The notes below the pieces were generated by a model. That model had not been told where the DNA came from. It did no database searches and was given only the letters and a program-made list of their open reading frames with translations. From Phycisphaerae bacterium (lineage in GTDB: Bacteria; Planctomycetota; Phycisphaerae; SM23-33): a stretch of 64,000 nt of DNA. How positions within the stretch are numbered: the first letter of the stretch is position 1; each line of letters opens with the position of its first letter. The stretch covers positions 25,664 through 89,663 of the forward strand of contig JAWLCQ010000001.1 of NCBI GenBank assembly GCA_041687095.1, given 5' to 3'. This document shows, one piece after another, positions 4,514-61,000 of this stretch. A program made the position numbers and the translations under genes.

Positions 4514-4589
4514 GCTCGCGCCTCCTTTGCCGTGCGCCCTCAAGACGTCCCTGCGGGAGGCACTCCGCTCCCCCCGGCCCTGTGGGGTT

Positions 4590-20530: not shown

Positions 20531-20591
20531 GAGGAAGCTGTCAGCTCTCAGCTCTCAGCGTTCAGCAGAGGAAGCATCGGCCACGCGGCTG

Positions 20592-20630
20592 TCGCTGAAA
20601 GCTGATCGCTGAAAGCTGAAAGCTGAAAGC
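20592..20630. repeat. Heptamer tandem repeat (GCTGAAA)x4-5
   Basis: gctgaaagctgatcgctgaaagctgaaagctgaaagctg, flanked by (CAGCTCT)x2 at 20551-20564 and (CAGCGAT)x3 at about 20659-20679. Confidence 0.7.
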
Positions 20631-20680
20631 TGCATCTGTTCCCCGATAACCTTCCGATCAGCGATCAGCGATCAACGAAT

Positions 20681-20788
20681 CAACCAGTCAACCAGTCAAC
20701 CAGTCAACCAGTTAACCAGTCAACCAGTTAACCAGTTAACCAGTCAACCAGTTAACCAGTCAACCAGTCAACCAGTTAACCAGTCAAC
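20681..20788. repeat. Octamer tandem array (YAACCAGT) x about 13 immediately upstream of pdxA
   Basis: caaccagtcaaccagtcaaccagtcaaccagttaaccagtcaaccagttaaccagttaaccagtcaaccagttaaccagtcaaccagtcaaccagttaaccagtcaaccaatcaacc: 8-nt unit with C/T alternation at position 1, 108 nt. Confidence 0.8.
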
Positions 20789-20811
20789 CAATCAACCAAC
20801 CACCGATCCTC

Positions 20812-21867: not shown

Positions 21868-22097
21868 CTCACGCAAAGGCGCAAAGGCGCAAAGGGAAGA
21901 AGAGGCAGCGGGAAGAAGAAGCCTGCACCGTCCCGCGCACGGCGCGCTTCATGGACGGGATGGACTCGATGGACAGTATGGACGCCATGGACCCGCGGGG
22001 TTCCGCTGTGCGGTCCTCTGCGTAATCTTGAAATCTGTGCAATCCCTCTCTCTCCGAGCTGTTTCTTCCCCTTCGCGCCTTTGCGCCTTTGCGTGAG
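21868..22097. repeat. About 30-bp near-perfect inverted repeat (arms 21868-21899 and 22065-22097, each containing (GCGCAAAG)x3) flanking about 165 bp that include a 23-codon Met-Asp-repeat micro-ORF
   Basis: Arm 1 is ctcacgcaaaggcgcaaaggcgcaaagggaag; arm 2 is cttccccttcgcgcctttgcgcctttgcgtgag (the reverse complement, with one indel). Between them ATGGACGGGATGGACTCGATGGACAGTATGGACGCCATGGAC is an in-frame MDGMDSMDSMDAMD... ending in TAA at 22022. Confidence 0.6.
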
Positions 22098-30715: not shown

Positions 30716-30951
30716 CGGCAGTGGTCCTTGGCCTCGTGGGTCCGGCGCCGCGGCCCAGCCGCGATGTTCTGCTCTGCAGTCATGAACGTCTCCATCCTTC
30801 TCCTCCGCCCGCGGGATGCCCCGGGCGGGCTTCCGCCCCGCCCCGAACTCTCGTCACCCCGCCGGGCGCCGGTCGGACAGTCCCCGAAGCTTACGACACG
30901 CGCACCGCTGGGGTCCAGTGCCCGGACACAATGCCCAGGGCCATCGCATCT

Positions 30952-31096
30952 CCGTGGCACGGGCGTCTCGCCCCTGCGGAGAGGCGAGAACGGCCTCGCG
31001 GCGAGCCCAAGCGCCCCCAATCCACGGGGGTTTCTCCGCCGAAGGCCACGGGCTTTCCTGCCCGTGGGACCCATGGGCGAGACGCCCGTGCCACGG
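30952..31096. repeat. Perfect 22-bp inverted repeat (CCGTGGCACGGGCGTCTCGCCC / GGGCGAGACGCCCGTGCCACGG) separated by about 100 bp, within a 476-bp intergenic region
   Basis: Arm 1 at 30952-30973, arm 2 at 31075-31096. The loop contains a further short hairpin, ccacgggctttcctgcccgtgg. No credible ORF. Confidence 0.7.
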
Positions 31097-31191
31097 AAAT
31101 TCTGTTCACCGCCGTGCTCGCACGAGCGCGGCGGAACAGGGGTCGCAGAACCCCCGGTGCCCTGCGGGTGCGCCCGCGAGAGCGCGGCGGC

Positions 31192-34448: not shown

Positions 34449-35501
34449 ATGAGGAGTTACAGCACAATGTCACAGCATCCCCCCGAGTACTCGCCGTCCA
34501 CCTACCACCAGGAGCTTCTGCGGTCCGTGTCCCCGTCGCTTCGCTACGGGGGCGGGGATGCGGCGGAGTGGCAGCGCGAGGCGCGGGCGCGGCTGTCCGA
34601 CCTGCTGGGGTACCCCGTGCTGCAGCGGACGCACCGCCCGCCGCTCAACGTGCGCTCCCTCTGGAAACGCGAAGGGGAGTTGGGCGTCATCGAGAAGATC
34701 GTCTTCACCTCGCAACCCGGAGCGGACGTGCCCGCCTACGTGTGCCTGCCCGCCAACGCCGCCCCGCCCTACACGTTCTTCCTCTGCCTGCAGGGCCACA
34801 CCACCGGCATGCACCACTCCATCGCCGTCAGTCCCGATGAGGCCCTCCCGCTGGAGCCCGACGGCGATCGCGACTTCGCCCTGGGCTGCCTCCGCCGGGG
34901 CCTCGCCGCCGTGTGCATCGAGCAGCGGTCGTTCGGGGAACGGCAGGAAGGGCGGATCCCCCAGTCGATCGACTACCTCTGCCACCAGGCGGCCATGCAC
35001 GCGCTGCTGCTGGGCACGACGCTGCAGGCCGAGCGCATCTTCGACCTCGACCGCGCGATCGACTACCTCCAGCAGCGCGGCGACGCGGACATGGGCCGGA
35101 TCGGGTGCATGGGCAACTCCGGGGGGGGCACCACGTCGCTGCTGGCGGGGGCGATCCTGGACCGCATCCGGTACGTCATGCCCTCGTGCTGCTTCTCGTC
35201 GCTGGCGGCGTCGCTGCTGGGGACGTTCCACTGCGTGTGCAACTACATTCCGGGGCTGCAGCAGGTGCTCGACATGGGCGATCTTGCGGGCCTGCTGGCC
35301 CCGCGGGCGCTGGTGATCGTTAACGGCGTGAAGGACGGGATCTTCCCCATCGCACCCGCCCGCGAGGAGTTCCGCCGCACCCAAACCGTCTACGCCGCCC
35401 TCAACGCCGCCGACCGCTGCCACTTCGTGGAGGGCCCGGGGGGGCATCGGTTCTACGCGGACCTCGCCTGGCCGGTCATGCAGGACGAACTGGGCCGGTA
35501 G
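34449..35501 (+). CDS. Alpha/beta-hydrolase fold esterase (acetyl-xylan-esterase / dienelactone-hydrolase-like)
   Basis: Nucleophile elbow GCMGNSGGG (GxSxG). The start MRSYSTMSQ is aa 192 of ORF 33876..35501; the upstream part is non-protein-like. Confidence 0.75.
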   Translation: MRSYSTMSQHPPEYSPSTYHQELLRSVSPSLRYGGGDAAEWQREARARLSDLLGYPVLQRTHRPPLNVRSLWKREGELGVIEKIVFTSQPGADVPAYVCLPANAAPPYTFFLCLQGHTTGMHHSIAVSPDEALPLEPDGDRDFALGCLRRGLAAVCIEQRSFGERQEGRIPQSIDYLCHQAAMHALLLGTTLQAERIFDLDRAIDYLQQRGDADMGRIGCMGNSGGGTTSLLAGAILDRIRYVMPSCCFSSLAASLLGTFHCVCNYIPGLQQVLDMGDLAGLLAPRALVIVNGVKDGIFPIAPAREEFRRTQTVYAALNAADRCHFVEGPGGHRFYADLAWPVMQDELGR

Positions 35502-35585
35502 CCACCTGGTCGGGGTACATGCAGGTGTCGAGGCGTCCCGCCTCCAGGGCGTCGGCATCGGGTTTCCCCGCCGCCCGAAGGGCAC

Positions 35586-35692
35586 TCATACGCATCCCAG
35601 TTAATTCTCGGGCAGCGTCGGTCTGACGTGGTTGCTCCGCTGCGCTCCGCAAACCACGGCACCCACCCGAGAATCAAGTGGAACGCGTATCA
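35586..35692 (-). repeat. Copy 2 (inverted) of the roughly 105-nt intergenic repeat seen at 14517-14626
   Basis: Its reverse complement, atacgcgttccacttgattctcgggtgggtgccgtggtttgcggagcgcagcggagcaaccacgtcagaccgacgctgcccgagaattaactgggatgcgtatg, aligns with copy 1 at about 90 % identity. It lies between the convergent esterase and nucleoside hydrolase genes. Confidence 0.6.
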
Positions 35693-35749
35693 TGCCCTGC
35701 CGGATCAGGGCCTGGTGATCGTGCGTGTTCATTTGCGGGCTCCTGGGGT

Positions 35750-36694
35750 TCAGCGCGTGCGGGCGGAGCGGAAGACGTCCAGCAGGTGCCGGTGGGTGGC
35801 AGCCTTGTCGGCGGTGTCGACGATCTCGTGCGGGCCCTGGGGGTCGGGCGCGAACGTCGTGTAGCCCGTGAGGTCATCCCCCGCCATCGGCGAACCGTTT
35901 GCCAGGAACTGGTGCGACAGGCGAACGCCCACCCGCCCGCGCCTGTACGTGGCCACGTCGCGCTCGAACGCCATCGCCACCGTGAAGGGGTCCGCGAGCC
36001 CCACGGCGGTTGTGCCCCGGGCCTGGGCCCATCGTTCGCCGGTCGCCCGGACGGCCGCCAGGCGGTCGCCCGCGAGCATCTCGCCCAGCATGTCTCGGTC
36101 AAGGTCCATCCCGTGGATGCGGTCGACCGTCAGCAGGGCGAAGGGCGTCTGTACGCGCTGCACACAGACGGCCGTGGCGACGGGGTCGAGCATGACGTTG
36201 CACTCCGTCTCGGGATGCTCCCGTGGATAGTTCAGCCGCCCGCCCATGCTCACCACGCGGGCGAGCATGGCGGCGGAGTCGGGGTCGCACAGCAGCAGCG
36301 TCGCGAGGTTCGTGAACTGCCCGATGGTGATCAGCGTGATCTCCCCGGGGTGTCGGCGGATGGTCTCGATGAGCCAGGGCACGGCGCGGCCGGGCGGGTA
36401 GGTTCGCTGCGGGCGGGGCTGGGCGTCGGTTGGCCAGGGCTGCACGGGGTTGGTCCGCCAGTAGGGGGTGGCGCACATCGGGTGGTGCGCCCCGGCGTGG
36501 ATGGGCAGATCGCCGCGGCCGAGCTGGGTGCAGATCACCTCGGCGAGTTCGGCGCGCTGGGGCGAGAGCTTGCCCACGGTGGTCACGCCCAGCAGGTCGC
36601 AGTCGTCGCGCAGCAGGAGGTACGCCAGGGCGATGGCGTCGTCGGGATCGGTGCAGTAGCCGATGTCGGTATCCAGGATCACCTTGGTGGGCAC
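35750..36694 (-). CDS. Inosine-uridine-preferring nucleoside hydrolase family protein
   Basis: KVILDTDIGYCTDPDDAIALAYLL is the IUNH aspartate-cluster signature DTDxGxDDxxAL. GTG start (codon 12 of ORF 35750..36727) with an AAGGAG SD 6 nt upstream; the longer ORF start falls inside the palindrome. Confidence 0.8.
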   Translation of the reverse strand: MPTKVILDTDIGYCTDPDDAIALAYLLLRDDCDLLGVTTVGKLSPQRAELAEVICTQLGRGDLPIHAGAHHPMCATPYWRTNPVQPWPTDAQPRPQRTYPPGRAVPWLIETIRRHPGEITLITIGQFTNLATLLLCDPDSAAMLARVVSMGGRLNYPREHPETECNVMLDPVATAVCVQRVQTPFALLTVDRIHGMDLDRDMLGEMLAGDRLAAVRATGERWAQARGTTAVGLADPFTVAMAFERDVATYRRGRVGVRLSHQFLANGSPMAGDDLTGYTTFAPDPQGPHEIVDTADKAATHRHLLDVFRSARTR

Positions 36695-36713
36695 GCGGGG
36701 CTCCTTTGGAAAA

Positions 36714-36859
36714 TGGTAACCGTTCACGGGGTGCCACCCTCAAGCGGCGCCGTTCAGCCGCTTGGGGGTGCTGCGGCGTGGGGAGCCCCACACCCCCAAG
36801 CCGCGAACAGCATGCGGCTTGAGGGTGGCACCCGGTTTGAACGGTCCCGTGAACGGTTA
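36714..36859. repeat. 146-nt nested triple palindrome (three concentric stems) between the rhamnosidase stop and the nucleoside hydrolase start
   Basis: Outer arms ggtaaccgttcacggg / cccgtgaacggttacc, middle arms gtgccaccctcaagc / gcttgagggtggcac, inner arms ccgcttgggggtg / cacccccaagccgcg. Coordinates are approximate to within 1-2 nt. Confidence 0.75.
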
Positions 36860-36970
36860 CGGAAAACGAAAGTCTTCGCAGCGCGATCCCGCCCGGAGGG
36901 GAAGGCCCCTCCCTCTGCCTCGACCCCCGAGCATTCTGCTGGCATCGAGGACGAGCGGGCCTGTCTGCTG

Positions 36971-39337
36971 CTACGGCGAGAGCGTGGTGGAACGGCGCCA
37001 CTCGGCCGGGCCGGAGACCTCCTCCGATACGTCACCCAGTCGGACCTCAACGGTCATCTCCACCGGGGCGACGAGGGTCAGGTGGACGGTGTTCCCGTCC
37101 CTTCTCCACGAGGCCTTCAGGATCCCATGGGGGGTGTTGAACTCGCCCGCCGCTCGCGTAACGCCGATCGGCCGGGGGCGGAAGGACGCGCGTCCCCAGC
37201 CGCCGCTCGTGGGCGAAACGCCCAGCACGTACGCCGGCAGCAGCGCCCCCGGTCCCCCCGCCCAGCCGTGACAGAGTCCGGTGTTGCCGCCCTGGATGCG
37301 CGTCTCGGGGAACGTCGGCAGGTCGGGGTAGGCGCCCCAGAACCATCGCATCTGCGCAACCGCCTGCTCGTCCATCCCCGCCTCGAACAGCGCGCGGATG
37401 AGCCAGTGCGCGAACCAGAGCGTCCCCACGGGAACCACGGGTCCGCGGACGCGGGCGGGGGGTTTCAGCGAGGCCTCGCCCACCGGCACCGGGCCCAGTG
37501 CGGCGGGATCGATGATCCGCCGCAGCACCTCCGCGCGGAGCGGTTCGGGCGGGACGCCGGCCAGGCAGGCCATGGCGTGGGCGGCCTGGCTGACGACGGG
37601 GCTGAGCGTCCCGTCCGGGAGCACCGCGTCGCTGTAGAGCCCGCGATCGGGCAGCCAGAACCGCTCGTGCGCGGCGAGGCGGAGGCGGGCGGCGCGGGCG
37701 GTGAGGTCCTCGCGCCCCAGGGCATCCCGCAGCTCCGGCTGTTCGCCCAGGCGCCCGAGCACCCAGGCGCAGGCGGCGTTGGTCAGCAGCAGGCAGCCCG
37801 ACTGCTCGATGGGCGACCACTCCCAGAACTGCCCCGCCGGCCAGGAGGCGATCAGCCCGCTTTCGTCGGTCAACGACTCCAGCAGGCCCAGCAGGCGGCG
37901 GGCCGTGGGGGCGACGGCGTCGAGGGTTGCGCGGTCTCCGCTGTGCAGCCAGTAGTCCGTCAGCGTCGCCAGCCACATGAGGCTGCTCGCGGCGAATGCG
38001 CAGTTGGTGCGCTCGGACGGGAAGAACCCGTTGATCCGCCCGTCCGGCAGGGCGGACTGCGCCCCCTGCAGCAGCGCCCGCCGCGTCATGGCCGTGTCGG
38101 CGAACGCGTAGGCCGACACCAGGCTGTGGACGTAGAGGTCCTCCATCCACTGCACGCGCTCGCGGGTGCAGCAGTCGGTGAAGGCGTCGGCGGTGCAGAT
38201 GCGGACGGTGAGGGCGGAGCGGGCGAAGAAGTCGTCCAGATCGCCCTGGTCCGAGGCGAAGGCGGGCTGGGCCGTGAAGGGGTACAGCTCCTCATGGGCC
38301 TCGACGCCTTCGATCCGTCCGGGCCCGGGCGACAGGTCGATCGTCACGTACCGCCAGCCCCGCGGGTGGGTCGTGGTGAACTCCCCGTCGCCCTCGGGCA
38401 GCAGGAAGCGGTCGGTCAGGTGGGCGTAGGTCCGCTCGGGGTTGGCGGTTCCGGCGTCGGTGAGCAGTTCGTCGTAGCTGACGTCCACCTGCTGGCCGGC
38501 ATCGGCGCCGGCGAAGCGCAGGGTCAGGTAGCCCGAGACGGTCCGCCCGAAGTCGAGCGTCACGTACCGGCCCTGCCGGGGCTCACCGCTCAACGGCAGA
38601 TCACGGGCTTGGGGGTGGCGGCGGCGGGCGCGAACGGCCGCCTGGCGCGAAGGCGTGAGGCTGTCGGCCTCCGCGGCGGTCCATGCGCCCGAGGCGACGA
38701 CGGTCGGGCGGGGGAGCGGATCCCACGTGAGCATCGGGATGTCGCGCGGGATCAGGGCTCCCCAGGGCTCGCAGCCCGCGCGCCCGATGACGGTTGCCTC
38801 GTCCCAGTCGGTGTCATCGAATGGCGGGAGCGTCCACCCGGCGGGCGCCTTCGCCAGGTCGCACACCTCCGGGAACCCGAAGTGCGACATCATCTCCGGC
38901 AGGTCCGCCTGCCAGGCGTCGCTCGCCCGGGCGCGCCATTGGGGCCCGGTCGACAGGTCCTGCCCCTGCACCTGGGCCTCGGCCAGCAGGGCCGGGCGGC
39001 CGAGCATCATGGTGGCGTTCACCTCGCCCACGTGGTGCACCAGCACGGCGAGGCAGTGGGGGCCGGGGGGCAGGTCCAGGTCCAGCGTGTCGAAGGACTG
39101 GTACTGTCGGTGGGCGCGCGCGGGTCCGCGTGCGCACCGTCGGCCGTCGAGGTAGAGCGTATAGAAGCTGTCGGCGACGAGGTGGATGCGGAGCGTGTCG
39201 TGGGCGGTGGTGCGGAACGTCCGGCGGAACAAGGCGTAGGCGTTCCTCGCCTCGGTCTGCGGGCTGTGCCAGATCCATTGCCCGGACCAGTCCGTCCGGA
39301 CTTCGCCGCCCGCCAAGGGGGTATGATGGTCGCTCAT
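36971..39337 (-). CDS. Alpha-L-rhamnosidase (GH78)
   Basis: The N-terminal WIWHSP..YALFRRTF..ADSFYTLYLDGRRCARGP matches the bacterial rhamnosidase N-domain; 788 aa with a six-hairpin glycosidase-like C-terminal half (WLATLTDYWLHSGD). Confidence 0.8.
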   Translation of the reverse strand: MSDHHTPLAGGEVRTDWSGQWIWHSPQTEARNAYALFRRTFRTTAHDTLRIHLVADSFYTLYLDGRRCARGPARAHRQYQSFDTLDLDLPPGPHCLAVLVHHVGEVNATMMLGRPALLAEAQVQGQDLSTGPQWRARASDAWQADLPEMMSHFGFPEVCDLAKAPAGWTLPPFDDTDWDEATVIGRAGCEPWGALIPRDIPMLTWDPLPRPTVVASGAWTAAEADSLTPSRQAAVRARRRHPQARDLPLSGEPRQGRYVTLDFGRTVSGYLTLRFAGADAGQQVDVSYDELLTDAGTANPERTYAHLTDRFLLPEGDGEFTTTHPRGWRYVTIDLSPGPGRIEGVEAHEELYPFTAQPAFASDQGDLDDFFARSALTVRICTADAFTDCCTRERVQWMEDLYVHSLVSAYAFADTAMTRRALLQGAQSALPDGRINGFFPSERTNCAFAASSLMWLATLTDYWLHSGDRATLDAVAPTARRLLGLLESLTDESGLIASWPAGQFWEWSPIEQSGCLLLTNAACAWVLGRLGEQPELRDALGREDLTARAARLRLAAHERFWLPDRGLYSDAVLPDGTLSPVVSQAAHAMACLAGVPPEPLRAEVLRRIIDPAALGPVPVGEASLKPPARVRGPVVPVGTLWFAHWLIRALFEAGMDEQAVAQMRWFWGAYPDLPTFPETRIQGGNTGLCHGWAGGPGALLPAYVLGVSPTSGGWGRASFRPRPIGVTRAAGEFNTPHGILKASWRRDGNTVHLTLVAPVEMTVEVRLGDVSEEVSGPAEWRRSTTLSP

Positions 39338-45827: not shown

Positions 45828-46005
45828 GTACGCCGGGGCCCGGCAGGCGTTTCGGGGGGAGGCAAGCGCATCTCTTCGTGCCGTGCCGTTTTCAGAATTC
45901 ACGATGGCAGCAAACCCCATCGTCGCTCCGACGATGGGGACCGGACAATGCGATTGAACCGCGGGCGTGCCCACGAGGCGCGCCCGTCACCCAAGGAGAG
46001 GGCCT

Positions 46006-49000
46006 ATGTCCGCGGATGCGGTGCAGCGCGCCAAGGTGCGCGGGAGCCTGACGAACGGGTCGGGGCGGATCGAGCTTCTGGAGCAGCGGATTCTTCTCAG
46101 CGGCACGCCGCTCCCCGACGCCGCCCGCCTGGGCCTGATCGAGGGCCTGACGGAGTTCGCCCAGTGGACCGACCGCCTGGGGCAGACGGAGGCCTTCACC
46201 ACGGGGCTCCCGCTGAGCGACGGGGCCACCCTGGGCACGGTCACCGCCGCCGGGGACGTCGTGCAGACCTATCTCGTGGATCGCGTCTGCCAGGTGCTCC
46301 AGAGTCCCGGAGCGACGCTGGAGGACGTGGTGAGCGCCCTGCGGGATCTGGGCGGCAGCTTCGTCGGGGATCTCGGGGGCCGGCAAGTTCCGCTGGACGT
46401 GCTGGTCGACCCGGCAGCCGTCGTCGGGGCATGGGTGGATTCCGAGATCTCCTTCTCCCTGCCGTTCCAGGCGCTGCTGCGCCCGCCGTCCGGGGTGGAC
46501 CTGGACGACGCGCTGGGGGCCCTGGGGTTCACCTCGGGCGCCGAATTCGCCCTCGATGCCCTCGGGAGCCTCACGCTGGACCTGACGTTCGGGTTCGACC
46601 TTTCCGAAGGCCTCGGTCAGGCCGAACAATTCTTCCTCCGCCCCGTCGAGATGCTGCTGGAGGCGGACCTGTCCGGCGCCGACTTCGATCTGCCCGATCT
46701 GCGCATGGGCTTCATGGATCTGGGAATCACGCACGGATCGATCTCACTGTCCGGATTGGCCGACGTGAGCTTCGTCAACCCCGACGCCGACCTCCTGGGC
46801 AGGATCACCCTCGATGAACTGCGGAACACGGCGATGGACGTGCTGGCCGCCGTGACGCCCGGGGGCACGCTCCAGGCGTCGCTGCCGCTGTCGGGGGTGC
46901 TGGGGGCCATGGGCCTGGGAGCCCCGCAGATCTCGCTGAACTGCCTGGACGTGTTCCAACTGCCGGTGGAGATGGGCTTCAATGCCGACTTCGAGGCGCT
47001 GCTGCCCCTGGGGCGGATCGATCCGGCGATGGTGCTGGAGGCGTTCGACAGCCTCGGGGCGTCGTTGACGTCGCTGCAGCGATCCGACGTGTTCGCGCGG
47101 ATCGAGGGACTGGGCGCCCAGAAGCTCTCCGATCTGCTGCGGCTGGGGGAGAACCTCCGGGGGATCATCGACGAGGTGCTGATGCGCCCGATCGATGGCG
47201 CCCACGGGCTCTACGAGTCGGCCTTCGACTCGGCCCAGAGCCTGCTGGAGCGCCTGGCGGCCTACCCGCAGAGCGTCCTGAGCAGCAGTGCGGACTACCT
47301 GGACGGCGTGCTGACGTACACGCTTCGTTTCGCCGCGAGCGACGCCCTGGAGGGGGACTTCGCCTACGACTACTCCGACGGTCCGCTGTCCCTGAGCGCT
47401 ACGGGCACGGTCAGCGGCGAGGTCGGGACCGAGGTGGCGCTGACGCTGGGGCTGGACCTGTCGGCCCTGTCGGCGGAGGTGATCGCGGCCGGGGCCGCCC
47501 CGGTCGGTGGGCAACTGGATCGCTCGGCCGAGTTCTCCGTGCAGGTGGGATCGGACGCGCCCGTGCGCGTGACGGTTCCCGCCGAGGCGACGGCAGACAA
47601 CGCCGGCCTGGACGATCTGGTGGCCGACATCAACGCCGCGCTGGCCGACGCGGGGCTGGTGGCCTGGACGGGTGCGGGGGCGGTGCTGCTGGTCGAGGCC
47701 CGCCGGGTCACCGTCGAGACCGCCGACGGGGAGCGGCAGCGCATCGCGCTGCGGACGCTGGGCCCGTGGGTGGCGGCTCGCCTGAGCGTCACGCCCGGGG
47801 CGGGGGCGGGGCAGCTTGGCTTCACGAGCGCCATGGAAGACCACTGCCGCCCCGAGGACTTCGCGTTCGTGCAGGACGCGGGGGCGTCGGCGAGCATGCT
47901 TGTGGCGGCCCAGATGCCCGAGGGGCACGGGCGCCTGGGCATGCTGGGTGGGATCACGTTGACAAACGGAGCCGCCTGGGTCGGCGGGACCGGGTACACC
48001 CCCGCGAGCCCCGTCCCAGCCACCGTGTCGTTCCAGATCGGGCAGGCGGGCGTTCGCTACGGTCTGGGCGACCTGGCGGAGACGATCGGGTCCGACGCGG
48101 CCGGTCTGGTCGAGGACTCGCTGACGACGGACGTGCAGGCGGGCTACCAGTTCACGGTGACGATCGAGGGCCAGACCGCCGAGTTGCTGGGCCTGGACCC
48201 GCTGGCGGTGCGGAGCATCGAGGTGCTGTACCCGGACGTGGTGGGCGGCCTGGCGCCGGTCATCAGCACCGTGGGGATGGACGAGCTGCTGGCCGCGGGG
48301 CAGCAGATCACGCGCGGGCAGATCGTCGAGGCGCTGCACGCCCTGGTGGACTTCCTGCAGGGGCTCGAATCGCTCCAAGGCCCGCTGAGCTGGCGCCTGC
48401 CCGGAACGGGCCTGAGCGTCAACGAGATGGTGGACTGCGCCCAGGATCTCGCGAGGCTCATCGAGCGGATCAACGCCGAGGGGCTCACCGCGCTGAACGA
48501 CAGCCTGTCGGGCCTCGCCGCCACCGTCCGCGACGTGCTGGGGCTCGCGGAGGACCAGTTCCTCCTGCGGATCGAGCCCGCGTCGGCCGCCGGGGAGGCC
48601 GCACTGCGGATGACGCTGGACCTCGACTACGCCTTCGACCGCCAGGCGGCGGTGAACCTGGACCTCGAAACGCTCATGGGGGCGAGCCTCTGGCCCCAGA
48701 TGGCGGACTACACGAGCATCCTCGGCGAATCGGGCGGGGGGACCGTTCGCGTGGACGGCAGCGCCCACGTCACGATCGACCTGGGGGTGGGCCTGTCGAG
48801 CCTCGATCCGTTCCTGTACGAGGGCACCGCCATCGGCGGGGCGCTCCGCGTGCAGGGGCGCGACCTGGCGTTCGACCTCACGCTGGGCCCGCTGCCGGGC
48901 ATGGCCGTCGCGGGCGGGCATCTGCTGGTGGGCGACTGCCCCGAGGGCGGACCGGCGGCGTACGGTGCGGGCGAGATCCCGGCCGCTGCGTTCCGCGTGG

Positions 49001-52000
49001 GCCTCACCGACACCGATCCCGCCACCGTCGAGCGCTACTACCTCTCGTCCATCGCCGACAGCGACGTGACGGGGACGCTGGACGCGCAGGTGGACCTGGT
49101 CCTGCCCTTCGAGGGCGACTGGGTGGACCCCGCCGACGCGGACCTGTGGCTGCTGGCGGGCGTGGACGCGCAGGGCGCCCTGGCGGACGTCGACGGTGAC
49201 TTCCCGACGTTCGTCATGCCCGACACGCTGAACCTCGAGGCGATGATCGACGGGCTGCGGACGCTGCTGACCCGCCTCCGCGACGCCTTGGGCACGCAGG
49301 CGTTCAACCTCAGCCTGCCCATCGTGGGCACGCAGCTCAACACCGCCTACCTCGACTCCCTGCTCGCCCGCCTGGGCGGTTGGTCGCCCTACGACGCCCT
49401 CCACGCCGCCACCTGGGCGACGAACAACCTCGCGGCGATGTTCGGGGCCTCCGCCCAGATCCAGGCGGCCGACACCGGGGACATGGACGCCGCCGACGCG
49501 GCGGCCGAGTGGATCATCCAGCTCTCCGACACCTACGCCTTCGGGGCCGCCGACGTGGACTTCGACCTGGGCCTGCCCGGGCTGGGGCTGGACATCGACG
49601 CCCACGCGGACGTGAGCCTCGACTGGGTCTTCAACCTGGGCCTGGGGTTCAGCAAGAACAAGGGCTTCTACCTCATCACCGACGACGGGGGGTTCGCGAC
49701 GGGCCTGGCGTTCGCCGGAGAGTCGCCCACGCTGGGCGTGGCGCTCACCGCGGGCGTCACCGATCTCGACGCGAGCGGGCGACTGGGCTTTCTGAACCTG
49801 ACGGCCGAGGCGATCCCCGGGGCGCCCATCGGGGCGAGCGGGCAGTTTGCCATCGACCTTTCGGGCCTCAACGGGCGGGTGTACTACAACCGCCTGGCGT
49901 CGTCGATCTACGACGTGGACGTCGCCTACGCCCTGTCCGCCGACGTCAATGCGCGGCTGGAGATCGCCTACAGCGCCAACTTCCCGTCGATCCTGTCGGA
50001 CCTGGTCATGCACTGGTCGTTCGACAACGACGACGCCACGGTTGACGCGCCGCTGTCGCTCGCCCTGGAGGACATCCGCATCGACCTGGGCGGGTATCTC
50101 GGTGGGGTCGTTTCGCCCGTGGTGGAACGCATCAACGAGGTCTTCGAGCCCCTGCAGCCGATCCTGAACGTTCTCAACACGACCGTGCCGGTGGTCTCGT
50201 ACGTCCTGGACCGCGACGTGACGATCCTCGATCTCGCCATCATGGCCGGGGGCTCGGGGGGCTACGACGTCGAGTTCCTCTCGGACGTCGCGGCCGTCGT
50301 CGACCTCGCCGGGCGGCTGCCCGCGCTCCAGTCGCACTACATCCACCTGGGGACGTACACGTTCGGTTCGGGCCTCGTGTCCGCCGACTCGCCGCTGGAC
50401 CTGGCGGTCAACGGCGGGGCGTTCGAGGGCAACGAGAACGCCCTGGTCGACGCCCGCAACGCCGGCGGCGGGTTCGGGGCGTTCCTGGACGACCTGCAGG
50501 AGATCGGGATCGAGATCCCGCTGCTGGCGGAGCCCCTCCGCGTCGTCGAGTTGTTCCTCGGCCGCGATGTTGAACTGGTGCAGTACACCACCCCGCGCCT
50601 GGCGCTGGACATCGACTTCCGCCAGCAGACCCCGATCATCTTCCCGTGGCTGGTGTTCACGATCGGGATGGACGCGAGCATCTCCGCGCAGGCGGCCTTC
50701 GGGTACGACACGCGCGGGTTGCGGCAGTACGCCGACGGGGGCGACACGGGCGACCTGCTCAACGGGTTCTACATGCGCACGGGCCCGCAGTACCCGCTGA
50801 TCCGCTTTGCGGGGCACGCCGCGCTGGGCCTGGGCGTGAGCCTCGGGGGCGTCGTCGCCGCCGGGGTCGAGGGCGGGATCGGGCTCGATGGGCACATCTA
50901 CGCCACCGACGCCGACGGCGACGGGCGCCTGCACTGGGACGAGCTGCCCGCGTTTGAACCGGGCGAGATCCTGTCGCTGTTCGATTGCGACGGGAGCATC
51001 TACTTCGACGTCCGCCTGTGGTGGGAAACGCCGATCGACGACGGAACCTACACGCTGGCGAAGGTGACGCTGATGGACTTCGGGGCCGGCACCGGCGGGG
51101 CCATCGAGCACGAGGCGGACATCGAGTTCGACCAGCGCGCCATGGGCAATTCCGTGGACCTCGGCCAGGCCCCGACCGCTCGCGTGTACCACCCCGAGCT
51201 GTGGGATTCGCGCGGAGTGCAGTGGTACCGCTTCTCCACCGACCGCGACAACGAGGTCTTCGATTTCTCGGCCGTCCGCGCCAGCGCGGGCAACGACATG
51301 GCCCTGGCCGTCTTCAACGCCGACGGGGAGCGCCTCGCCATGTCGGCCGGCTGGGGCAGTTCGCAGGCGACGCTCAACGACGTCCGCCTGGGCGAGCGGG
51401 GCGTGTACTACCTCGCCGTCATGTGCAACGACCCCGAGTGGCCGCTGGAGAGCGTCTCCGTCACGCCCAACACCGACGCGCTGACGGGCACGGTGGTGTA
51501 CTACGTCAACGACCTGGACGACTCGCCCGACCCGTACCTGATGGGCAACCCCTACACGTCCGCCCCGGGCGACGACGCCAACAGCGGTTTGGACCCCGCG
51601 CACCCCAAGGCGAGCATCTCCGCGGTGGTCTCATCGTTGACAGGCAACGAGGGGCGCGTCTACATCCTCGTCGACAGCGGGCACTACCGCGTGGACGACG
51701 AGGCCGAGCGCATCCGCCTGGCGCAGGGCAACGTGTGGTTCGTCGGGACCTGGCACACGAACGTGACGTTCGCCGCCGGTCCGCTGTTCGACCTGAACAA
51801 CGCCGGGGACGTCCACCTCTACGGGTTCAATCTCTACGGCGAGGGGACCGCGACGGCGGTCCGTACGCGCGGGGACGGCCTGTGGGACGCAGCCGCGGGG
51901 CATTATGCACCCGTCGATTCGCTCGTCATCGAGGGCAACCGCTTCGACGGCGTGGGCGTGGGCATCGACGCCGGGTGCTTCCAGAGCGTGGTGATCTCCG

Positions 52001-55000
52001 GCAACCGCTTCACGGGCGAAGGGGCCGCGGGCGTGGTGTTGGGCACATCGGCGATGGCGATGGTCTCGGGCAACAGCTACCGCGGGTACGTGGGGCAGTA
52101 CGGGCTGCGCACGGGGGGCCGGTTCAGCGCGTTCGTCGCCGACAACGAGATCGCCGGGACCGTCGCGTCCGTCTGGGCCGACGACGGCGGGTCGGTGTAC
52201 CTGCGCGGCAACACGATCAGCGGGAGCGTCGTGCTTCGCGGCGACCGCGACAACGTGGTCCGCGGGAACACCATTACCGGCGACGTGCGCCTCATCGCAC
52301 CGGCCGATCCGAACTGGGGCCAGATCGTCTGGCCGGGCGAGTGGGTGGAGGCCAACGCCCTGGCGCCCCTCCCCTACGACGAGGCGTTCTCCCAGGCGAT
52401 CGTGGGCAACGTGATCTCCGGGGCAGTCCGCGTCGAGTACGCGACAGCCACCCTCATCGAGGGCAACGTGTCCCTGGGCTCGGTGGTGGTGGCCGCGGGG
52501 AACAAGAACACGCAGATCCCGATCATCGTGCGGCTGAACGAGTCCATCGACGCCGGGGCGGGCGTCGCCGTCGAGGTGACGGGCCTGTCGTGGGCGGACA
52601 TCACCGACAACGCCCTGATCCGCGGGGCCACGGGCGTGCTCATCGACACCAGCGACCTGTGCACCGTCAGCGGGAACCTCATCGACGCGACGCAGTACGG
52701 CCTGCGGATCGTCAACGCCGGCAGCATGCTGGCGATGGAGAACCGCATCGACGCGGGCGTCGAGGGCGTCCGCATCGAGGGCAACTACTTCGTGCGGCTG
52801 GAGGGCAACGAGATCTCGGGCGGAGAGTCTTCGATCCGCGGGATCGGCAGTTGGGTGGTCCCGCGGGTGACGGGCAACCGCCTGACGGGCGGCGTGTGGT
52901 TCGAGGGCGACGGGCTGCTCGTCCCCCCCATGCTCCGCCGCCTGGGGCAGTTCCGCGAGAACGACGTCGACGGGACCGTGACGATCGACACCGGGCACCG
53001 CCTGGAAGTCCTCGGGAACCTCCTGCGGACCGGGCGACTCACCGTGACGACGGGGGGCAATGCGACGGTTTCGGACAACCTCGTGAACCAGGAGATGATT
53101 CTCACGATCGGCGGGTCCGCCGACGTGTCGTGGAACCTCGTGGACCTGGGCGACCTGCGCCTGACCGTCGCTTCGGGGCAGGCGTGGACCGTGTCCGACA
53201 ACACGCTCACCGGCGGATACGTCGGCGGGGGCGACCTCGTCGTCAGCGGCGGGACGCGGGCGCAGGCCCAGGGCAATACGGTTGTCAACGGCGACCTGCG
53301 AGTCACGATCACCGACGCCCCGACGTCTGCGACGCCCGCGAGCGTCCTCACCGACAACACGGTCTCCGGCGTCCTGTCGCTCGTCGGCGGGCCTGGCGCG
53401 GACATCCACGACAACCCGTCGCTCGGCGGTCTGCACGTGGCCATCGGCGGGGCGTGGGGGCAGGCGGATCGGGCCTGGCACACGCGGATCACCAACAACC
53501 CGGTCATCACCGGGGACTCCCACGAGGGGCGCGGGACGATCGACGTGACCGTGCCCGGGACGCTGCTGGTGAGCGGCAGCGTGGTGCAGCGCGGGCACAG
53601 CTACTTCACGGCGGCCGGGGCTGTGCGGATCGAGGGCAACGACTTCGTCGCGGGCGACCTGTTCGTCGCCATCCCCGGCGACAGCGGGACCTTCGGCGAG
53701 GCCCCCAGCGTTCTGGCGGGCAACTGGGTGCGGGCGGGGAGCGTGTGGTACAGCGGGGGGGGCGGGCTGGACCTCTACGACAACCCGATCCTCGACCGCA
53801 CGGTGGACATCGAGATCACCCAGCCGTGGACGGCCATGCCCGCGGGGCGGATGTACCACACCCGCGTCTTCACCACTCCGGGCGGGGCGCAGGCCATCGG
53901 CAACCTGCTCCTCGACATCCCCGGATCCGCCGAGGTGCGGGACACGCACTTCGACGGGTCGTGGGGCCTGCAGATCGGCGGGTCGAGCCTCGTGGGGCAC
54001 CTCGTCGAGAACGTCACGACGACATTCGGTGGGATCACGATCACGTCGGGCCCGGCGGCAACCCTGCGCGGGAACACCGTGTGGGGCGGGGTGACGGTGA
54101 ACGTGGCGGGCAACGAGTTGCCCGCGGGGACGGACTGGGCGACGGTCGTCGAGGACAACACCGTCAGCGACGGGATCTGGCTGAACCTCGACACGCGCGC
54201 GGAGGTCCGCCGCAACACCATCACCGAGAGCGGGCAGGCCTTCAGCGACGGCAGCCTGCGGATCGCGGGCGCGGCCGACAGCGGGCACGTGGTCACGGGC
54301 AACACGATCCACGGCGGCATCGAGATCACCAGCGGGCCGTGCGCGACGATCGAGGGCAACTCGCTGGCGTTCGGGAGCATCGTCCTGAACATCCCGGACG
54401 ACGAGGTCATCGTCGGGCAGGCGAACGTCACGCACATCCGCGGGAACGTGCTGGCGATGGGCGGGGTCTCGGCCCGCCTGGGCGCCGCCGCCGTCATCGA
54501 ACCGCTCGCCCTCAGCGGCGGGGGCGAACAGCCCAACGTGGTGAGCTTCCTCACGCTGACGGGCAGCTCGGCCGCCGCGCACCAGGTCCGCGGGAACCGC
54601 GTGACGGGCGACATCAGCGTCTCCGCCGGCCCGGCGGTCGTCATTGAGGACAACACCGGCCCGCTGGCGAGCGATCCGCTGGGGACGATCCGCGTCCGCC
54701 TCGGGGGGGCGGGGCAGGACGGGAGCATCGTGTCCGGCAACCGCGCGGGGACGATCGACCTTCAACTCGCCTCCGGCGGGACGATCGGCCACAACACCGC
54801 CGGCGCGGGCATGCTCCTGACGCTCGGCAACGCCGGTGGGGTGCTGCACAATACCGTGCTCGGCGGCGGGATGGCCCTCGCCGGCAGCGGCGGGGACGGG
54901 CATCTTGTGCAGGGCAACGTCGTCACGGGTGGGGTGCGAGTTTCCGCCTCGGCGGCCATCGCCCACGACATCACGGGCAACACGATTTCGGGCGCAGCGT

Positions 55001-58000
55001 ACGGCCTGGAAGTCACCGGGGGCGCCCCGGCCACGGTGCACGACAACGTCCGCATCGAGGGCGATTCCATCGGGATCCGCATCGTCGGCAACGCCCGCGT
55101 CACCGTCGAGGACAACCCCGCGATCCTCGGGACCGCCTGGGGCGTCTGGGCGGACGGGGACGGGGCCGTGCTGACGATCCGCGGCAACGACATTGTCGGG
55201 GGCGTCTACGTGGACAGCCTGCTGGGGGCCCTCATCGAGTCCAACGAGATCCACGACGGGACCACGGGCGTGTACCTCACGGGCGGCTCGACGGACGTGG
55301 TGCGCGGGAACGTCGTCCGCGGGTTCTCGACGGGCGTGCAGTTCCTGTCCGCGGCGGCCGAGGCGTACGGTAACGAGATTCACTCCAACGTCACGGGCGT
55401 CCGCACGCCGGCGACGCTGGGCGGTTCGGATTGGATCGCCCCCAACGCCATCCACCACAACACGGTGGGCGTCGAGGCCCTGGCGGGGGCGACGGTCCGC
55501 TTCAATCGCCTCGAGGCCAACGCCATCGGCATCGACGCCGCCGGCAGCGTCTCGGTGCATCACAACGTCCTGGCGGACAACAGCGCCCAGGGCGTGCTGG
55601 TCGACGCGGCCTCCAACGTGCAGGTGGTGAACAATACCATTGTGACCGCCGACGGGTTCGGCGACGGGGTGGTGGTGCAGGGCGGGTCCTCCGGGGCAGC
55701 GGTGCGGAACAACATCCTCTGGTCGCGCGGCGGGTACGGGCTGTACGTCGCGAACGACTCGCAGGTGGGCCTCGCCAGCGACTACAACAACCTGTACGCC
55801 TCGGGCAGCGGGCGCGTCGTGTGGTACCAGAGGGCGTACGACGACCTGCTGGACTGGCAGCTCGATTCGCTATACGACGCGCACTCGATCGGCTACACGC
55901 GGATCGACCCGCTGCGGGACGACCCGCGCTTCGTCGACCCCGCCGGCGGCGACTACCGCGTGCAGATGGGCTCGACGGGCATCGACCGCGGCGACCCGGC
56001 GAGCGATTTCACGCTCGAACCGTCCGTCAGCGGCGGGCGGATCAACCTTGGTGCGTTCGGTGGGACGAGCGAGGCCGCCCAGTCCTCGGCGGCGTATCTG
56101 CGCGTCGAGTACCCCGACTTCCACGCGGACTGGCAGGTGGACCGCGCGCGGAACATCCGCTGGTCGCAGTGGAACGTCGCGGGCGACGTGCGCGTCGAGG
56201 TCTACCGCACCGACGGGACGCCGGCCGCCGCGGTGGGGACGTTCGCGGCGGCGGCGGGCGAGTGCAGTTGGAGCCCCCGGATGGCTGGGCTTTCGGTGGA
56301 CCTCTCGCAGGGCTATCGCGTCCGCGTGACGTCCGTGAGCGACGGGAGCGTCTTCGCCGAGTCCCGCGAGCCGTTCTACGTCGTCCCCGTCGGGGGCACG
56401 TTCTACGTCAACGACGCCCTCACGGGCGACGACCAGTACACGACGGCCGCCGGGGACAACCGCAACCCGGGCCTGTCGCCCGACGCGCCCAAGGCGAGCG
56501 TCCTGGCGACCCTGCGCCTCTACGACCTCGGGGCGGGCGACGTCATCCGCATCGACGACGGGTACTACCCCCTGCCCACCAACCTGCTGCTGGGCGGGCC
56601 GGGGAGCGCGGGCGACGACGAGGGCGTACACCTCGACGGGCCGACGCTCGCGGGCAGCGAGGCCGTCCTCGACCGCGTCGTCACCCGCGCGGGGACGATC
56701 GCCGTGGACGTGAACCGCGCCGACGGGATCGAGCTGCGGAACCTCACGATCCGCAACGGTCAGCGCACGCTGTGGGTCCGCGAGGGGTCCGAGCGGTTCG
56801 TGGGTGAGCACCTGGACATCTCGGGCAGCGCGCTCGACGGGATCCGCATCGAGAGCGGCTGCGAGGACGTGTGGCTCCAGTCGCTGCGGGTGCATGGCAA
56901 CGGTGGGGCGGGCGTGTACGCCGCTCCTGCCCGGGTCACCCTCCTCGACAGCGAGATCGCCAACAACGCAGGAACGGGCGTTTCCTTGCCCGCGGCGGGT
57001 GCGGCGCGCATCGAGGGCAATACCGTCAGTGGGAACGCGGCAGGCATCGTCATCACGCACGCCGTCGCGGGCACGACGGCCATCGTTGGCTCGCTGGGGC
57101 ACGGCAACCTCGTGCGGAGCAATGCGGGCGACGGGATCACCGCGGTGGGCCGCGTGCTGGTCGAGGGCAACACGGTGTCGGGGCACACGGGGGCGGCGGG
57201 CATCCGCATCACCGAGGGCACGTCGGCGTATCCCGAGGCGAACGACAACGTCGTCAGCGGCAACGCGACGGGGATCGAGTCCAACACCCGCGCCTCGGTG
57301 CGCGGGAACCTGGTGTACGACAACGCCGTCCACGGCATCCGCGCGCGCGGGAGCGAGACCCTCGCGAACAACGTCGTTCACGACAGCGGCGTGGGCATCC
57401 AGCTCTGGTCGTACTACACCGGGACAATCGAGCACAACGTACTGTACGCCAACGCGACGGCCGCGGTGCGCGTCACGGGCCCCAGCACCGGGGCGATCTC
57501 GCTGCGCCACAACACCATCCATCAGACCGCCGGGGACGGCGTGCGGCTGGAAACCACCGCCGACGGTGTGACGCTCGATAACAACATCATCGTCGTCGAG
57601 GGCGGGTACGGGATCTACGTCTCCGACAACAGCCAGCCGGGCTTCTCCAGCGACGACAACCTGCTCCGCGCCACGGGCGGGGGGCGCGTGGGGTACTGGC
57701 AGGGCGAAGCGGGCAGCCTGGCGCAGTGGCGGCAGGCGTCGGGGCAGGACTCGCGCAGCCTGTCGGACGACCCGCGGTTCGTCAATGCGGCCGGCGGCGA
57801 CTACCACCTCCAGAGCCTTACCGGCAGCATGCACGGGGGGACGCTGGCGGTGGTGCTCGACGGGGCGACGGGCCTGCCCGTCGCGGCGGCGGGGACCCTG
57901 GAGTTCGACGGGGCCCAGTCGCCCGCCATCGACCGCGGGCGGGCGGGCAGCGCGTACGATCAGGAGCCGGCCCCCCACGGGGCGTTCGCGAACCTCGGGG

Positions 58001-61000
58001 CGTACGGGAACACTCCGCAGGCGTCGCGCAGCCCGGTGAGCTACGTCATGCTCCTGACCCCCGAGGGCGGGAGCGTGGTGATGACCGGGCGGTCTGCCAC
58101 CGTCCGCTGGCGGAGCGAGGGCTTCACCGGTGCGGTGGACATCGAACTGCTCCGCGGGGGGGCGTTCCTGCGGACCGTCGCCACCGGCGTCGCCAACAGC
58201 GGCGAGTACGCCTGGATCGCCCCCGCCGACCTGCCCGCGGGCAGCGACTACTCGCTCCGCATCACCCGCCCCGGCGGGGTGTCGGGCGCCAGTGCCACGT
58301 TCAGCGTCGAGGCCTTCCAGGGCGTGTACTACGTCAATGACGGTTCGGTGAACGGTGACGGGGCCGACTGGACCACGGCGGCGGGGGCGATGGGCAACAC
58401 CGGCCTGAGCCCCGACTCGCCCAAGGCGTCCATCGCGGCCGTCTTCGAGAGCTACGAGCTGGTCCCGGGCGACGTCATCTACGTCGACGCGGGCGTGTAC
58501 ACGCTGTCGAGCAACCTGCTGCTGACGGCCGCCCAGAGCGGGATCCGGATCGTGGGCTACCATGACGACGCCCACCCGGATCGCCAGGCGGTGTTGGACC
58601 GCGCCAACACGCTCGCCGGCAGCTACGCCATACAGCTCTCGGGCGCCTCGGGCGCCTCCCTGGAGCACCTGTCGTTCACCGGGGCGTACTCCGGCATCTA
58701 CGCCGCCGACGCCGTGGTCTCCGACGGGATCCGCATCGAGAACTGCCGCTTCTACGGCAATGAGACGTGGGGCGTGTGGCTGGGGGCGGGATCCGCCAAC
58801 GTCGTCGTCGAGGGAAGCCACTTCAGCGGCATGGCCGTTGCGGGCATCGACCAGAGGGGCGGCGTGTATCTCGGCGGCAGCGGGGCGCAGGTGCGCGGCA
58901 GCACCATGCACGACTTCGCCCTCGACTGGTACTACGGGATCGAGACCACCGGGGCGGACGCGACGGTCGATGGCAACACGATCACGAACGTCTTCAATGG
59001 CCTCCATGTGACGGGCGTCCGCTCGATGGTGAGCGGGAATACCGTGAGCGGGGGACGGACGGGCATGAACCTGTCGGGCTTCTCCAACGTCGCCGACTGG
59101 ATCGAAGCCTCGGGCAATATCGTGCACGGGCAGACGTGGCAGGGCATCTACGCCGGTAGCGGCGTGCGGGTCGTGGGCAACACCGTCTACAACGTGATCC
59201 ACTCGGAGCACACCGGGTCGCCCTCGGGGGCGATCCACGCCACGGGCGACATCCTCGATAACGTCGTGTACGCCAGCACCTGGGGCATCCGCTCGGGCGG
59301 GTACACGGGCATGACGGTCCGCGGGAACCTGGTGTACGGCTGCACCATCGGGATCTTCACCTGCTCGGGCACGCTGGAGGCCAACGAACTCCGCAACAAC
59401 GTGACCGGGATCAAGATCAGCGGGTACTACGAGGGCGTCGTCCGCAACAACCTCATCCGCGACAACACCCAGGCGGGCCTGGTGGTGTACGCCACCACGC
59501 CCTACGGGACGCGCCTGGTTGAGAACAACACCTTCCATCAGCCCACCGGCGACGCCATCCGCCTCCAGGAGACGGCCCTCAACGTCATCCTCCGCAACAA
59601 CATCATCCACGTCGGGGGCGGCTATGGCGTGTACGTGAGCAACGACAGCCAGAGCAGCCTGACCAGCGACTACAACCTGATCCACACCACCGGCAGCGGG
59701 AAGGCGGGCTACTGGCAGAGCGACCGCGCCACGCTCGCCGACTGGCGAAGCGCGACCGGAAAGGACGCCTGGAGCCTCTCGCAGGACCCGCTCTTCGTCG
59801 ACCCCGCGGGCGGGGACTTCCACCTCCAGAGCCCCCACGGCAGTTACCACGGCGGCCGGCTGGCCGTCGCGCTCGACTCCGCCACCGGCCTGCCCGTCTC
59901 CGTCGCGGGCCAGTGGGTCTCCGACGCCGCGCAGTCCCCCGCCATCGACCGCGGAGACGCGGGCGTCAGCTACGCCAACGAGCCCGCCCCCAACGGGGCG
60001 TTCGTCAACCTCGGAGCCTTCGGGGGCACCGCCCAGGCGTCCCGCAGCCCCGACGCGTACCTGACCGTCCTGTCCCCGTCTGCGGGGGAGACGTGGATGA
60101 CTAACCGCACGTCCGTCCTCCGTTGGCGCAGCCAGGACATGGATGGGGCGGTCGCCATCGAACTGCTTCGCGGGGGGACCGTGCAGAGCGTCATCGCCGC
60201 TTCCGCCCCCAACAGCGGCTCGTACGAGTGGCTGCTGCCCCGCGAACTAGCCGAGGCGGGCGACTACTCCATCCGCATCACCCGCTCGGGAGAGGTGGTG
60301 GGGCAGAGCGGGACGTTCAGCATCGTCCCGGCCGCGGCGGCTTACTACGTCAACGACGGTTCGGTCAACGCCGCGGGCGACTGGACGACGGCGGCCGGTA
60401 ACGATGCCGCCGACGGGCTCACGCGCTCGACTCCGCGGTCGTCGATCGCGGCGATTCTCGCGAGCTATCAGCTTTCCGCGGGCGACGTCATCTACGTGGA
60501 CGCGGGCGTCTACACGCTGTCGAGCAACCTGGTGCTGTCGGCGGCGCAGAGCGGGATCCGCATCGTCGGATACCACGACGAGGCCCACGAGGACCGCCGC
60601 GCCGAACTTCGCCGAGGCAACACCTCGAGTTCCAGCTACGCCATCCAACTCGCCGGGGCCGCCGACGTGAGCCTCGAACACCTGCACATCACGGGCGCCT
60701 ACCACGGGGTCTACGCGGCCAACTCGGCCGGGGCGACGGGGCTGACGATCCTCGACTGCACGATCTACGGCAACAGCAGCTACGGCGTGTGGGTGGGGAC
60801 GGGCAACCACGGCGCCGGCGTGGCCGACAGCGAACTGCACGGGCTGCTGTACAACGGCGTGCGGCAGGTGGACGGGGTGTACCTGGGAGGCAACTCGTCG
60901 CGGGTCATCGACAGCTACCTGCACGGCCACTCCAGCGGGAACAGCGACGCCATCGAACTCCCCGGGACCGACGCGGTGGTGAGCGGCAACGTGCTGGTGA

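Follow-up and report, generated by a model that had tools for sequence, protein, structure and literature searches.

A nested palindrome between a rhamnosidase and a nucleoside hydrolase gene of a Phycisphaerae bacterium is very probably a MITE with the ends of small IS66-family elements

The stretch of 64,000 nucleotides of Phycisphaerae DNA analyzed here, which we call the window, holds an extensive inverted-repeat structure between two co-directional genes on the minus strand, and the question it raises is whether this structure was built for the control of these genes or was left there by mobile DNA. Upstream of it lies a GH78 alpha-L-rhamnosidase gene (36971-39337), whose stop codon is 110 nt away, and downstream an inosine-uridine-preferring nucleoside hydrolase gene (35750-36694; PF01156, E = 8.6e-36), so that the gene context given in the earlier note is confirmed. 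That note described a triple-nested palindrome at 36714-36859, far more elaborate than a terminator, and offered three candidates for it: an attenuator or processing site, a protein-binding palindrome array and a MITE remnant. Glycoside hydrolases are numerous in the window, and the best named relatives of its pdxA product (about 65-74% identity) were found only in Planctomycetota, Planctomycetes and Phycisphaerae MAGs.

The palindrome is real and near-complete. The element proper spans 36716-36860, which makes the place given before nearly exact and the exact bounds not; it is 145 bp long with 59-60 base pairs, has sharp borders (G36716 and C36860) and a symmetry centre at about 36781-36786. 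The outer arms are terminal inverted repeats, GTAACCGTTCACGGG on the left (36716-36730, with the core CCGTTCA at 36720-36726) and CCCGTGAACGGTTAC on the right (36846-36860), complementary at 15/15 positions. The second 15 bp (36731-36745 with 36817-36831) are also perfect and form with the outer arms a 30-bp stem, the sole interruption of which is a one-sided 14-nt bulge, CCGGTTTGAACGGT (36832-36845). The palindrome has no large asymmetry other than this bulge, which folds into a small side hairpin and contains an extra copy of the core, TGAACGGT (36838-36845). The inner arms, 36760-36770 and 36791-36801, match at 11/11 positions, or alternatively over 14 nt at 93%. Between them lies a central region (36771-36790) of helices of 2-3 bp and a 7-nt apical loop at the symmetry centre. 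The interior of the element includes GGTGCCACCCTCAAGCSGC.

Much of this arrangement is made of a 14-nt unit, CACCCYCAAGCSGC, which occurs four times with alternating orientation. Unit 1 (36735-36748) is a part of the left subterminal arm GTGCCACCCTCAAGCGGC (36731-36748), unit 2 is GCCGCTTGGGGGTG (36757-36770, the left inner arm), unit 3 is CACCCCCAAGCCGC (36791-36804, the right inner arm), and unit 4 (36814-36827) belongs to the right subterminal arm GCGGCTTGAGGGTGGCAC (36814-36831), as delimited by the inverted-repeat and fold analysis. Because of this alternation both a single long hairpin and a cloverleaf or cruciform are possible, as had been proposed. In the long hairpin unit 2 pairs with unit 3, while in the cloverleaf units 1 and 2 pair with each other and the stretch 36749-36756, with an internal copy of the core CCGTTCA (36750-36756; partner GAACAGC at 36805-36811), becomes the loop of their local hairpin. 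Both structures can be folded, and the linear hairpin (-110.9 kcal/mol) is favoured over the cloverleaf (-95.9 kcal/mol) by about 15 kcal/mol.

Folding of the minus (sense) strand from 36700 to 36875, the check suggested for this locus, gave a minimum free energy of -113.1 kcal/mol (z = -11.2), which none of 200 shuffled sequences equalled in stability; the plus strand gave -110.7 kcal/mol (z = -9.0). No 160-nt segment of the 64 kb had a lower energy than the palindrome in a sliding scan, although its G+C was the lowest among the top segments. The element is without coding capacity, and the ORFs that overlap it are an extended hydrolase ORF and long spurious ORFs of the high-G+C type. Comparison of the window with Rfam covariance models gave no match at the gathering level, the only one with E < 1 being a spurious miRNA model (23.7 bits against a cut-off of 90).

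The extended hydrolase ORF is the reason why the start of this gene had been moved downstream to the GTG at 36692-36694, and the correction is well founded: the Shine-Dalgarno sequence AAGGAG (36701-36706) lies 6 nt upstream of this GTG, the Pfam domain begins directly after it, and P0001, a database protein, begins at the same place and likewise extends over 314 aa. On the sense strand 9 nt separate the downstream end of the element from the Shine-Dalgarno sequence, and the start codon is 21 nt away. Homologues of the hydrolase with 55-70% identity were found in other gene contexts, with no similar palindrome upstream and no shared motif, and this includes the closest one, which is 70% identical. 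Upstream of a homologue with 55% identity (locus L011, 5840-5960) we saw a palindrome of another kind, about 110 nt long (GAGATCCCTCGACTTCGCTCGGGATGACA ... TGTCATTCCGAGCGAAGTCGAGGGATCTC), which suggests that unrelated MITE-like hairpins are situated upstream of members of this hydrolase family in other lineages too.

The first indication of the origin of the element comes from its flanks. A direct repeat of 8 bp, GGAAAATG (36708-36715) on the left and GGAAAACG (36861-36868) on the right, starts exactly where the terminal inverted repeats stop. The two copies agree at 7/8 positions, so the repeat is not perfect, and 8-mers at this spacing that agree at 7/8 or better are found at a background of 0.25% of window positions. 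The element is short and non-coding, with terminal repeats of 15/15 and a flanking duplication of fixed length, as is expected of a MITE. The 64-kb window holds a single copy of it and no second one with the same interior; a supposed degenerate copy near 5674-5759 was rejected, as it is coding sequence and forms no palindrome.

The second indication is that its ends are found in a large number of other elements. We scanned JGI metagenome contigs for the 12-nt termini in the arrangement GTAACCGTTCAC-N(100-130)-GTGAACGGTTAC and obtained matches in at least 120 contigs. Among the matches listed there were at least 161 paired elements, mostly 120-160 bp long (about 124-154 bp), and where the flanks could be measured the 8-bp target-site duplication was perfect in 72 of 157, agreed at 7/8 in 23 and at 6/8 in 4. 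Also among the matches listed, positions 13-15 of the terminus read RGG, conserved though outside the search pattern, and conservation collapses past position 15, from which it follows that the common end is 15 bp long, with the consensus GTAACCGTTCACRGG. The ends of the window copy match this consensus exactly. In the same set of listed matches some contigs had several paired elements, some insertions were nested or in tandem, and there were also larger versions of 200-500 bp, non-coding and flanked by perfect duplications; most of the apparently orphan termini in this set are decayed or truncated MITEs, and its host contigs range from 38 to 70% G+C. Many of the MITE-bearing metagenomic contigs look planctomycete-like. 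Long ORFs spanned 28% of the reconstructed empty sites of the listed matches, compared with 56% of random positions, which indicates an intergenic bias of the insertion sites.

The interiors of these elements are a different matter. The 92 unique elements among the listed matches fall into at least 24 clusters of interior sequence that are unrelated to each other, and therefore only the 15-bp ends are common to the superfamily. The window element is a singleton with respect to its interior among the 93 elements compared in the listed matches, and the fourth of the 93 in fold stability per nucleotide; its interior subfamily is so far represented by this single copy. A search of 185,579 species-representative genomes with the interior hairpin pattern found only eight unrelated single terminator-like hairpins and no copy of the element, no copy with the same interior was present among the fetched metagenome loci of the listed matches, and a pattern scan of viral contigs gave 0 matches. 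The earlier note had held that many identical copies elsewhere, flanked by target-site duplications, would make the palindrome a plain MITE. Dispersed copies with such duplications do exist at the level of the superfamily, and only there; as none of those found has the interior of the window element, many identical copies were not borne out. In L010, which is from a Planctomycetaceae MAG, a ferredoxin gene is followed by a terminator-like hairpin (757-805) with 20-21 nt (GGGTGCCACCCTCAAGCGGC) identical with the subterminal arm of the window element; we judge this identity to be coincidental, though it may be a clue to where the interior came from.

These observations bear on the possibility that the palindrome is a product of chance or of assembly. 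Palindromic chimeras can arise in metagenome assemblies, and one of our loci, L007, a MAG contig of 4551 bp, ends in a long near-perfect palindrome (4340-4551, centred on a ACCCCCAAGCGGC hairpin) that is probably an assembly fold-back artefact. The palindrome studied here lies within its contig with an intact gene on either side, a large independent family has matching ends, and with z = -11 and 0/200 shuffles as stable an accidental structure of this kind is extremely improbable.

A MITE should share its terminal repeats with elements that encode a transposase, and the window itself has no DDE_Tnp_IS66 or zf-IS66 transposase gene. All-against-all clustering of the ORFs in MITE-bearing loci likewise showed no recurrent transposase, only sulfatases, Ser/Thr kinases, ABC ATPases and similar host genes. 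Two short contigs that end inside a transposase gene right behind a terminus provided the connection. In L126 an ORF that reads inward from the terminus matches DDE_Tnp_IS66 (PF03050) at positions 2-97 (E = 4.8e-12), and in L129 an ORF that matches positions 109-281 of the same domain (E = 2.2e-21) has its stop codon 10 nt from a terminus. It was also observed that in L126 the terminus is doubled at the transposase-proximal end of the autonomous element (589-742). Here a palindromic mini-element of 109 bp, which has the same ends and is not obviously flanked by a duplication, comes 46 nt inside the outer GTAACCGTTCAC; it must be a nested MITE or else a repeat of the end that is naturally present subterminally.

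With the L129 fragment as a protein query 2396 relatives were retrieved, three of which, on longer contigs, were examined. L138, a 1.42-Mb contig of an NCBI assembly, contains a complete element of 1733 bp (3131-4863) with exact GTAACCGTTCACGGG / CCCGTGAACGGTTAC ends, flanked by a perfect 8-bp duplication, CACATCTC, and its only ORFs are DUF6444 plus zf-IS66 and DDE_Tnp_IS66. In L139-L143 a 1617-bp element has exact GTAACCGTTCACGGG ends around a DDE_Tnp_IS66 gene, with no matching 8-bp flanks, and the relative in L137 has diverged ends, a duplication TGATCCCC and interrupts an FAD-oxidoreductase gene. As the partner elements were retrieved by protein similarity and not by a DNA pattern, their identical ends are an independent confirmation of the connection. 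The L138 and L139 elements (1.6-1.7 kb) carry a single IS66-family DDE transposase and neither tnpA nor tnpB, which fits the single-ORF ISBst12-like layout (PMC12898284). When the transposases of the partner elements are compared with annotated IS66-family transposases on plasmids of cultured organisms, the identity reaches about 31% at most.

L133 contains, at 2094-4552, a canonical IS66 with three genes (tnpA-like, TnpB PF05717 and a split TnpC PF03050). Its 23-nt ends, GTAAGCGATCAAATTCCGGCGTT (terminal inverted repeat GTAAGCGATCAA...), are surrounded by a perfect 8-bp duplication, GCACAGAG, and it has 9/12 terminal bases in common with the window MITE. It was rejected as a partner since its terminal repeat differs (GTAAGCGATC...), and it therefore serves as a family control only. 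Next to this IS66 is an IS21/Mu-like integrase gene, and MITEs that belong to the GTAACCGTTCAC family are found at a distance of about 1 kb.

Taken together, these findings make it very probable that 36716-36860 is a MITE of a superfamily whose ends are those used by small single-transposase IS66-family (ISBst12-like) elements. The IS66 family is characterized by inverted repeats starting with GTAAGCG and by 8-bp direct repeats (PMC11946415), and ISDge4, a member of the ISBst12 group with a single ORF, has the ends GTAACTGCTCAGCA (GTAACTG) and a direct repeat of 8 bp (PMC12898284). Termini of the GTAACCG... type together with an 8-bp duplication are present here in the window, in the family and in the autonomous copies, and the terminal repeats are common to the transposase-encoding elements of L138 and L139-L143 and to the fragments L126 and L129; the cognate DDE_Tnp_IS66 and zf-IS66 domains occur in related loci only. 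Compared with ISBst12 and ISDge4, the window element is similar in termini that start with GTAAC and in the 8-bp duplication, and its partners in their size of 1.6-1.7 kb and in one DDE_Tnp_IS66 transposase with zf-IS66 and no tnpA/tnpB (PMC12898284). It differs in being only 145 bp long, in having no transposase and in its end, GTAACCGTTCACGGG, as opposed to GTAAGCG... in classic IS66 and GTAACTGCTCAGCA in ISDge4. Of the three candidates proposed earlier the MITE is thus the one upheld, by its ends, duplications and IS66 partners, while the attenuator or processing site and the protein-binding array are not supported as its origin.

A plausible course of events would be as follows. We infer that an ISBst12-like IS66-family DDE transposase, supplied in trans, would bind both 15-bp ends and integrate the element by 8-bp staggered cuts at GGAAAAYG in the rhamnosidase-hydrolase intergenic region, duplicating these 8 bp, one copy of which would later have gained a T/C transition. 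The pre-insertion spacer would then read ...CCTTTGGAAAAYGAAAGTC..., without the 145 bp, and the insertion would have lengthened it from about 123 nt to 276 nt. The architecture would be of the foldback type, with the two halves as inverted copies of one arm of about 70 nt, each arm consisting of the terminal repeat, a subterminal segment and its own 14-bp hairpin. A hairpin together with its inverted copy presents the 14-nt unit four times in alternating orientation, and the triple nesting would be a consequence of this foldback architecture. The internal CCGTTCA copies (36750-36756 and 36838-36845) are similar to the core repeats found subterminally in other subfamilies and are plausible candidates for additional transposase-binding sites.

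Similar elements are found in other bacteria. Correia/NEMIS of Neisseria, ERIC, RUP and Nezha are likewise short, non-coding and intergenic, with terminal inverted repeats, a fixed-length duplication and a long RNA hairpin, and could affect neighbouring transcripts (general description in PMC3733652). The window element differs from them in its parent, which is IS66 and not IS630, IS5, an IS200-type element or others, in a duplication of 8 bp and not of TA, and in that its superfamily shares the 15-bp ends only. REP/REPIN-type palindromes, which are mobilised by RAYT tyrosine transposases, can be compared too, because they are intergenic, highly palindromic and repeat-like, are able to act as RNA stabilisers or terminators, and REP superfamilies are present in Planctomycetes (PMC3733652). 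REPs are, however, 20-40 bp long, carry GTAG or CGTC tags and produce no target duplication (PMC3733652), while the much longer element described here has 145 bp, 15-bp terminal repeats starting with GTAA as well as an 8-bp duplication, and its partner is of the DDE IS66 type and not a RAYT; its assignment to this class can be considered about as improbable as an assembly error.

An RNA regulatory element that evolved in situ, as an attenuator or processing site, or an operator array for a transcription factor, in either case with no transposition involved, would agree with the intergenic position between co-directional genes and with the exceptional folding energy, and the repeated CCGTTCA and 14-nt units could in that case be binding sites. 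Ends identical to those of insertion sequences together with an 8-bp duplication are difficult to reconcile with such an origin, as are the lack of an Rfam match and the absence of the structure upstream of all hydrolase homologues examined. The CCGTTCA core is, moreover, part of a transposon end and recurs subterminally in other subfamilies, for example in L023, L055 and L064. We regard an origin of this kind as very improbable. The structure is indeed more elaborate than a terminator, as had been remarked, but the regulatory design which this seemed to imply is not supported, given the foldback architecture, the Rfam result and the homologues lacking the palindrome. As its 15-bp ends and its 8-bp duplication are those of small insertion sequences of the IS66 family, the structure is best understood as mobile-DNA debris and not as a purpose-built regulatory structure.

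Mobile debris can nevertheless affect the genes beside it, and MITEs that form long hairpins beside genes are well known. Folding predicts as a likely by-product of the insertion a very stable hairpin in any read-through transcript, which could cause pausing, partial termination or a barrier to 3' or 5' exonucleases. It can therefore be asked whether the MITE has been exapted, i.e. whether its hairpin was kept as an intercistronic terminator or attenuator, or as an mRNA-stabilising barrier, that sets the ratio of rhamnosidase to hydrolase expression. The sense-strand hairpin (-111 kcal/mol) is followed by the tail CAUUUUCC 9 nt from the Shine-Dalgarno sequence and 21 nt from the start codon, the fold does not stably sequester the Shine-Dalgarno sequence, and the alternative cloverleaf is less stable by only about 15 kcal/mol. 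The tail has four U in 8 nt, after a CA spacer, compared with a criterion of at least 5 U in 8 nt, and a promoter and terminator consensus scan of 35400-37200 found 0 sites. The U-run is a part of the duplicated target and not of the element, and the duplications of the family among the matches listed show no strong sequence preference and no T-richness, so any terminator-like effect looks incidental. The hairpin resembles a Rho-independent terminator or attenuator in being a G+C-rich sense-strand hairpin between two genes with a short U run behind it, and differs from one in a stem of about 60 bp compared with 5-15, in the four U after a CA spacer and in the lack of a leader peptide and of an anti-terminator logic tied to a signal. 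On this evidence exaptation seems quite unlikely.

In a somewhat wider form, two further readings have to be weighed jointly. According to the first, the hairpin was co-opted as a leaky terminator or RNA-stability barrier which uncouples hydrolase from rhamnosidase expression. According to the second, which concerns the whole family, the ISBst12-like clade needs only the 15-bp end and mobilises any short DNA flanked by GTAACCGTTCACRGG, which, if true, would explain the at least 24 unrelated MITE interiors in hosts of 38-70% G+C and would make this a 'minimal-end' MITE superfamily of environmental bacteria. The two together, the second being included in this estimate, we consider unlikely, and the preferred reading is still that of a MITE whose effect on transcripts is a by-product.

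At the rhamnosidase-hydrolase locus this identification removes a false lead, because the structure is the footprint of a transposon and not a riboregulator specific to the operon, and it supports the corrected start of the hydrolase. The element is unsurprising in kind, being a MITE, and its wider importance is that the locus led to a large MITE superfamily, abundant in metagenomic contigs, that is tied to small single-ORF IS66-family elements. The 12-nt terminus was not found in the searched literature, and the searched work on IS66-derived or Planctomycetes MITEs contained no description of a superfamily with GTAACCGTTCACRGG ends; the superfamily, defined by these ends, an 8-bp duplication and ISBst12-like IS66 partners, is thus apparently undescribed in that literature and apparently very widespread. 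Knowledge of such elements is useful for annotation, as they break assemblies and shift predicted gene starts. The mechanism of end recognition in the IS66 family is said to be insufficiently characterised (PMC12898284), and the superfamily should help its study.

Other repeats were observed in the window. What had been called a 105-nt repeat is 113 nt long and occurs in two inversely oriented copies with 91% identity (14511-14623 and 35585-35697); it has, as was stated, no sequence relation to the palindrome. Its ends are imperfect inverted repeats of about 25 nt (ATACGCRTYCCA..TTCTCGGG), no clear target duplication was seen, and it looks like a second, unrelated MITE family. One copy is situated downstream of the hydrolase gene, about 50 nt from its stop codon, so that this gene has mobile-element-like repeats of two different kinds on its two sides. 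The other copy is adjoined by a long G+C-rich hairpin (GCGCGCACATGGCGAAGCGCAGCGGAGCCATGTGCGCGC..., 14661-14820), which is the second most stable fold of the window, while the third most stable 160-nt fold belongs to a 153-bp intergenic element at 30948-31100 with 29-nt inverted ends (CCGTGGCACGGGCGTCTCGCCC...); a related stretch of 34 nt (82-115) is situated inside a kinase-like ORF at the window start.

Around pdxA, two tandem arrays, of 15.9 copies of the 8-nt TCAACCAG (20672-20798, 90% matches) and of 5.6 copies of GCTGAAA (20588-20632), closely precede the start of the gene as judged from the 332-aa database protein P0121, and downstream of the gene a 29-nt inverted repeat (21868-21896 and 22069-22097, 97% complementary), built of (GCGCAAAG)3, flanks 172 nt of non-coding DNA. 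At the other end of the window a single ORF of more than 6000 codons (45958-63999) with internal repeats of about 2 kb runs off the window end, and its product is presumably a giant repeat surface protein.
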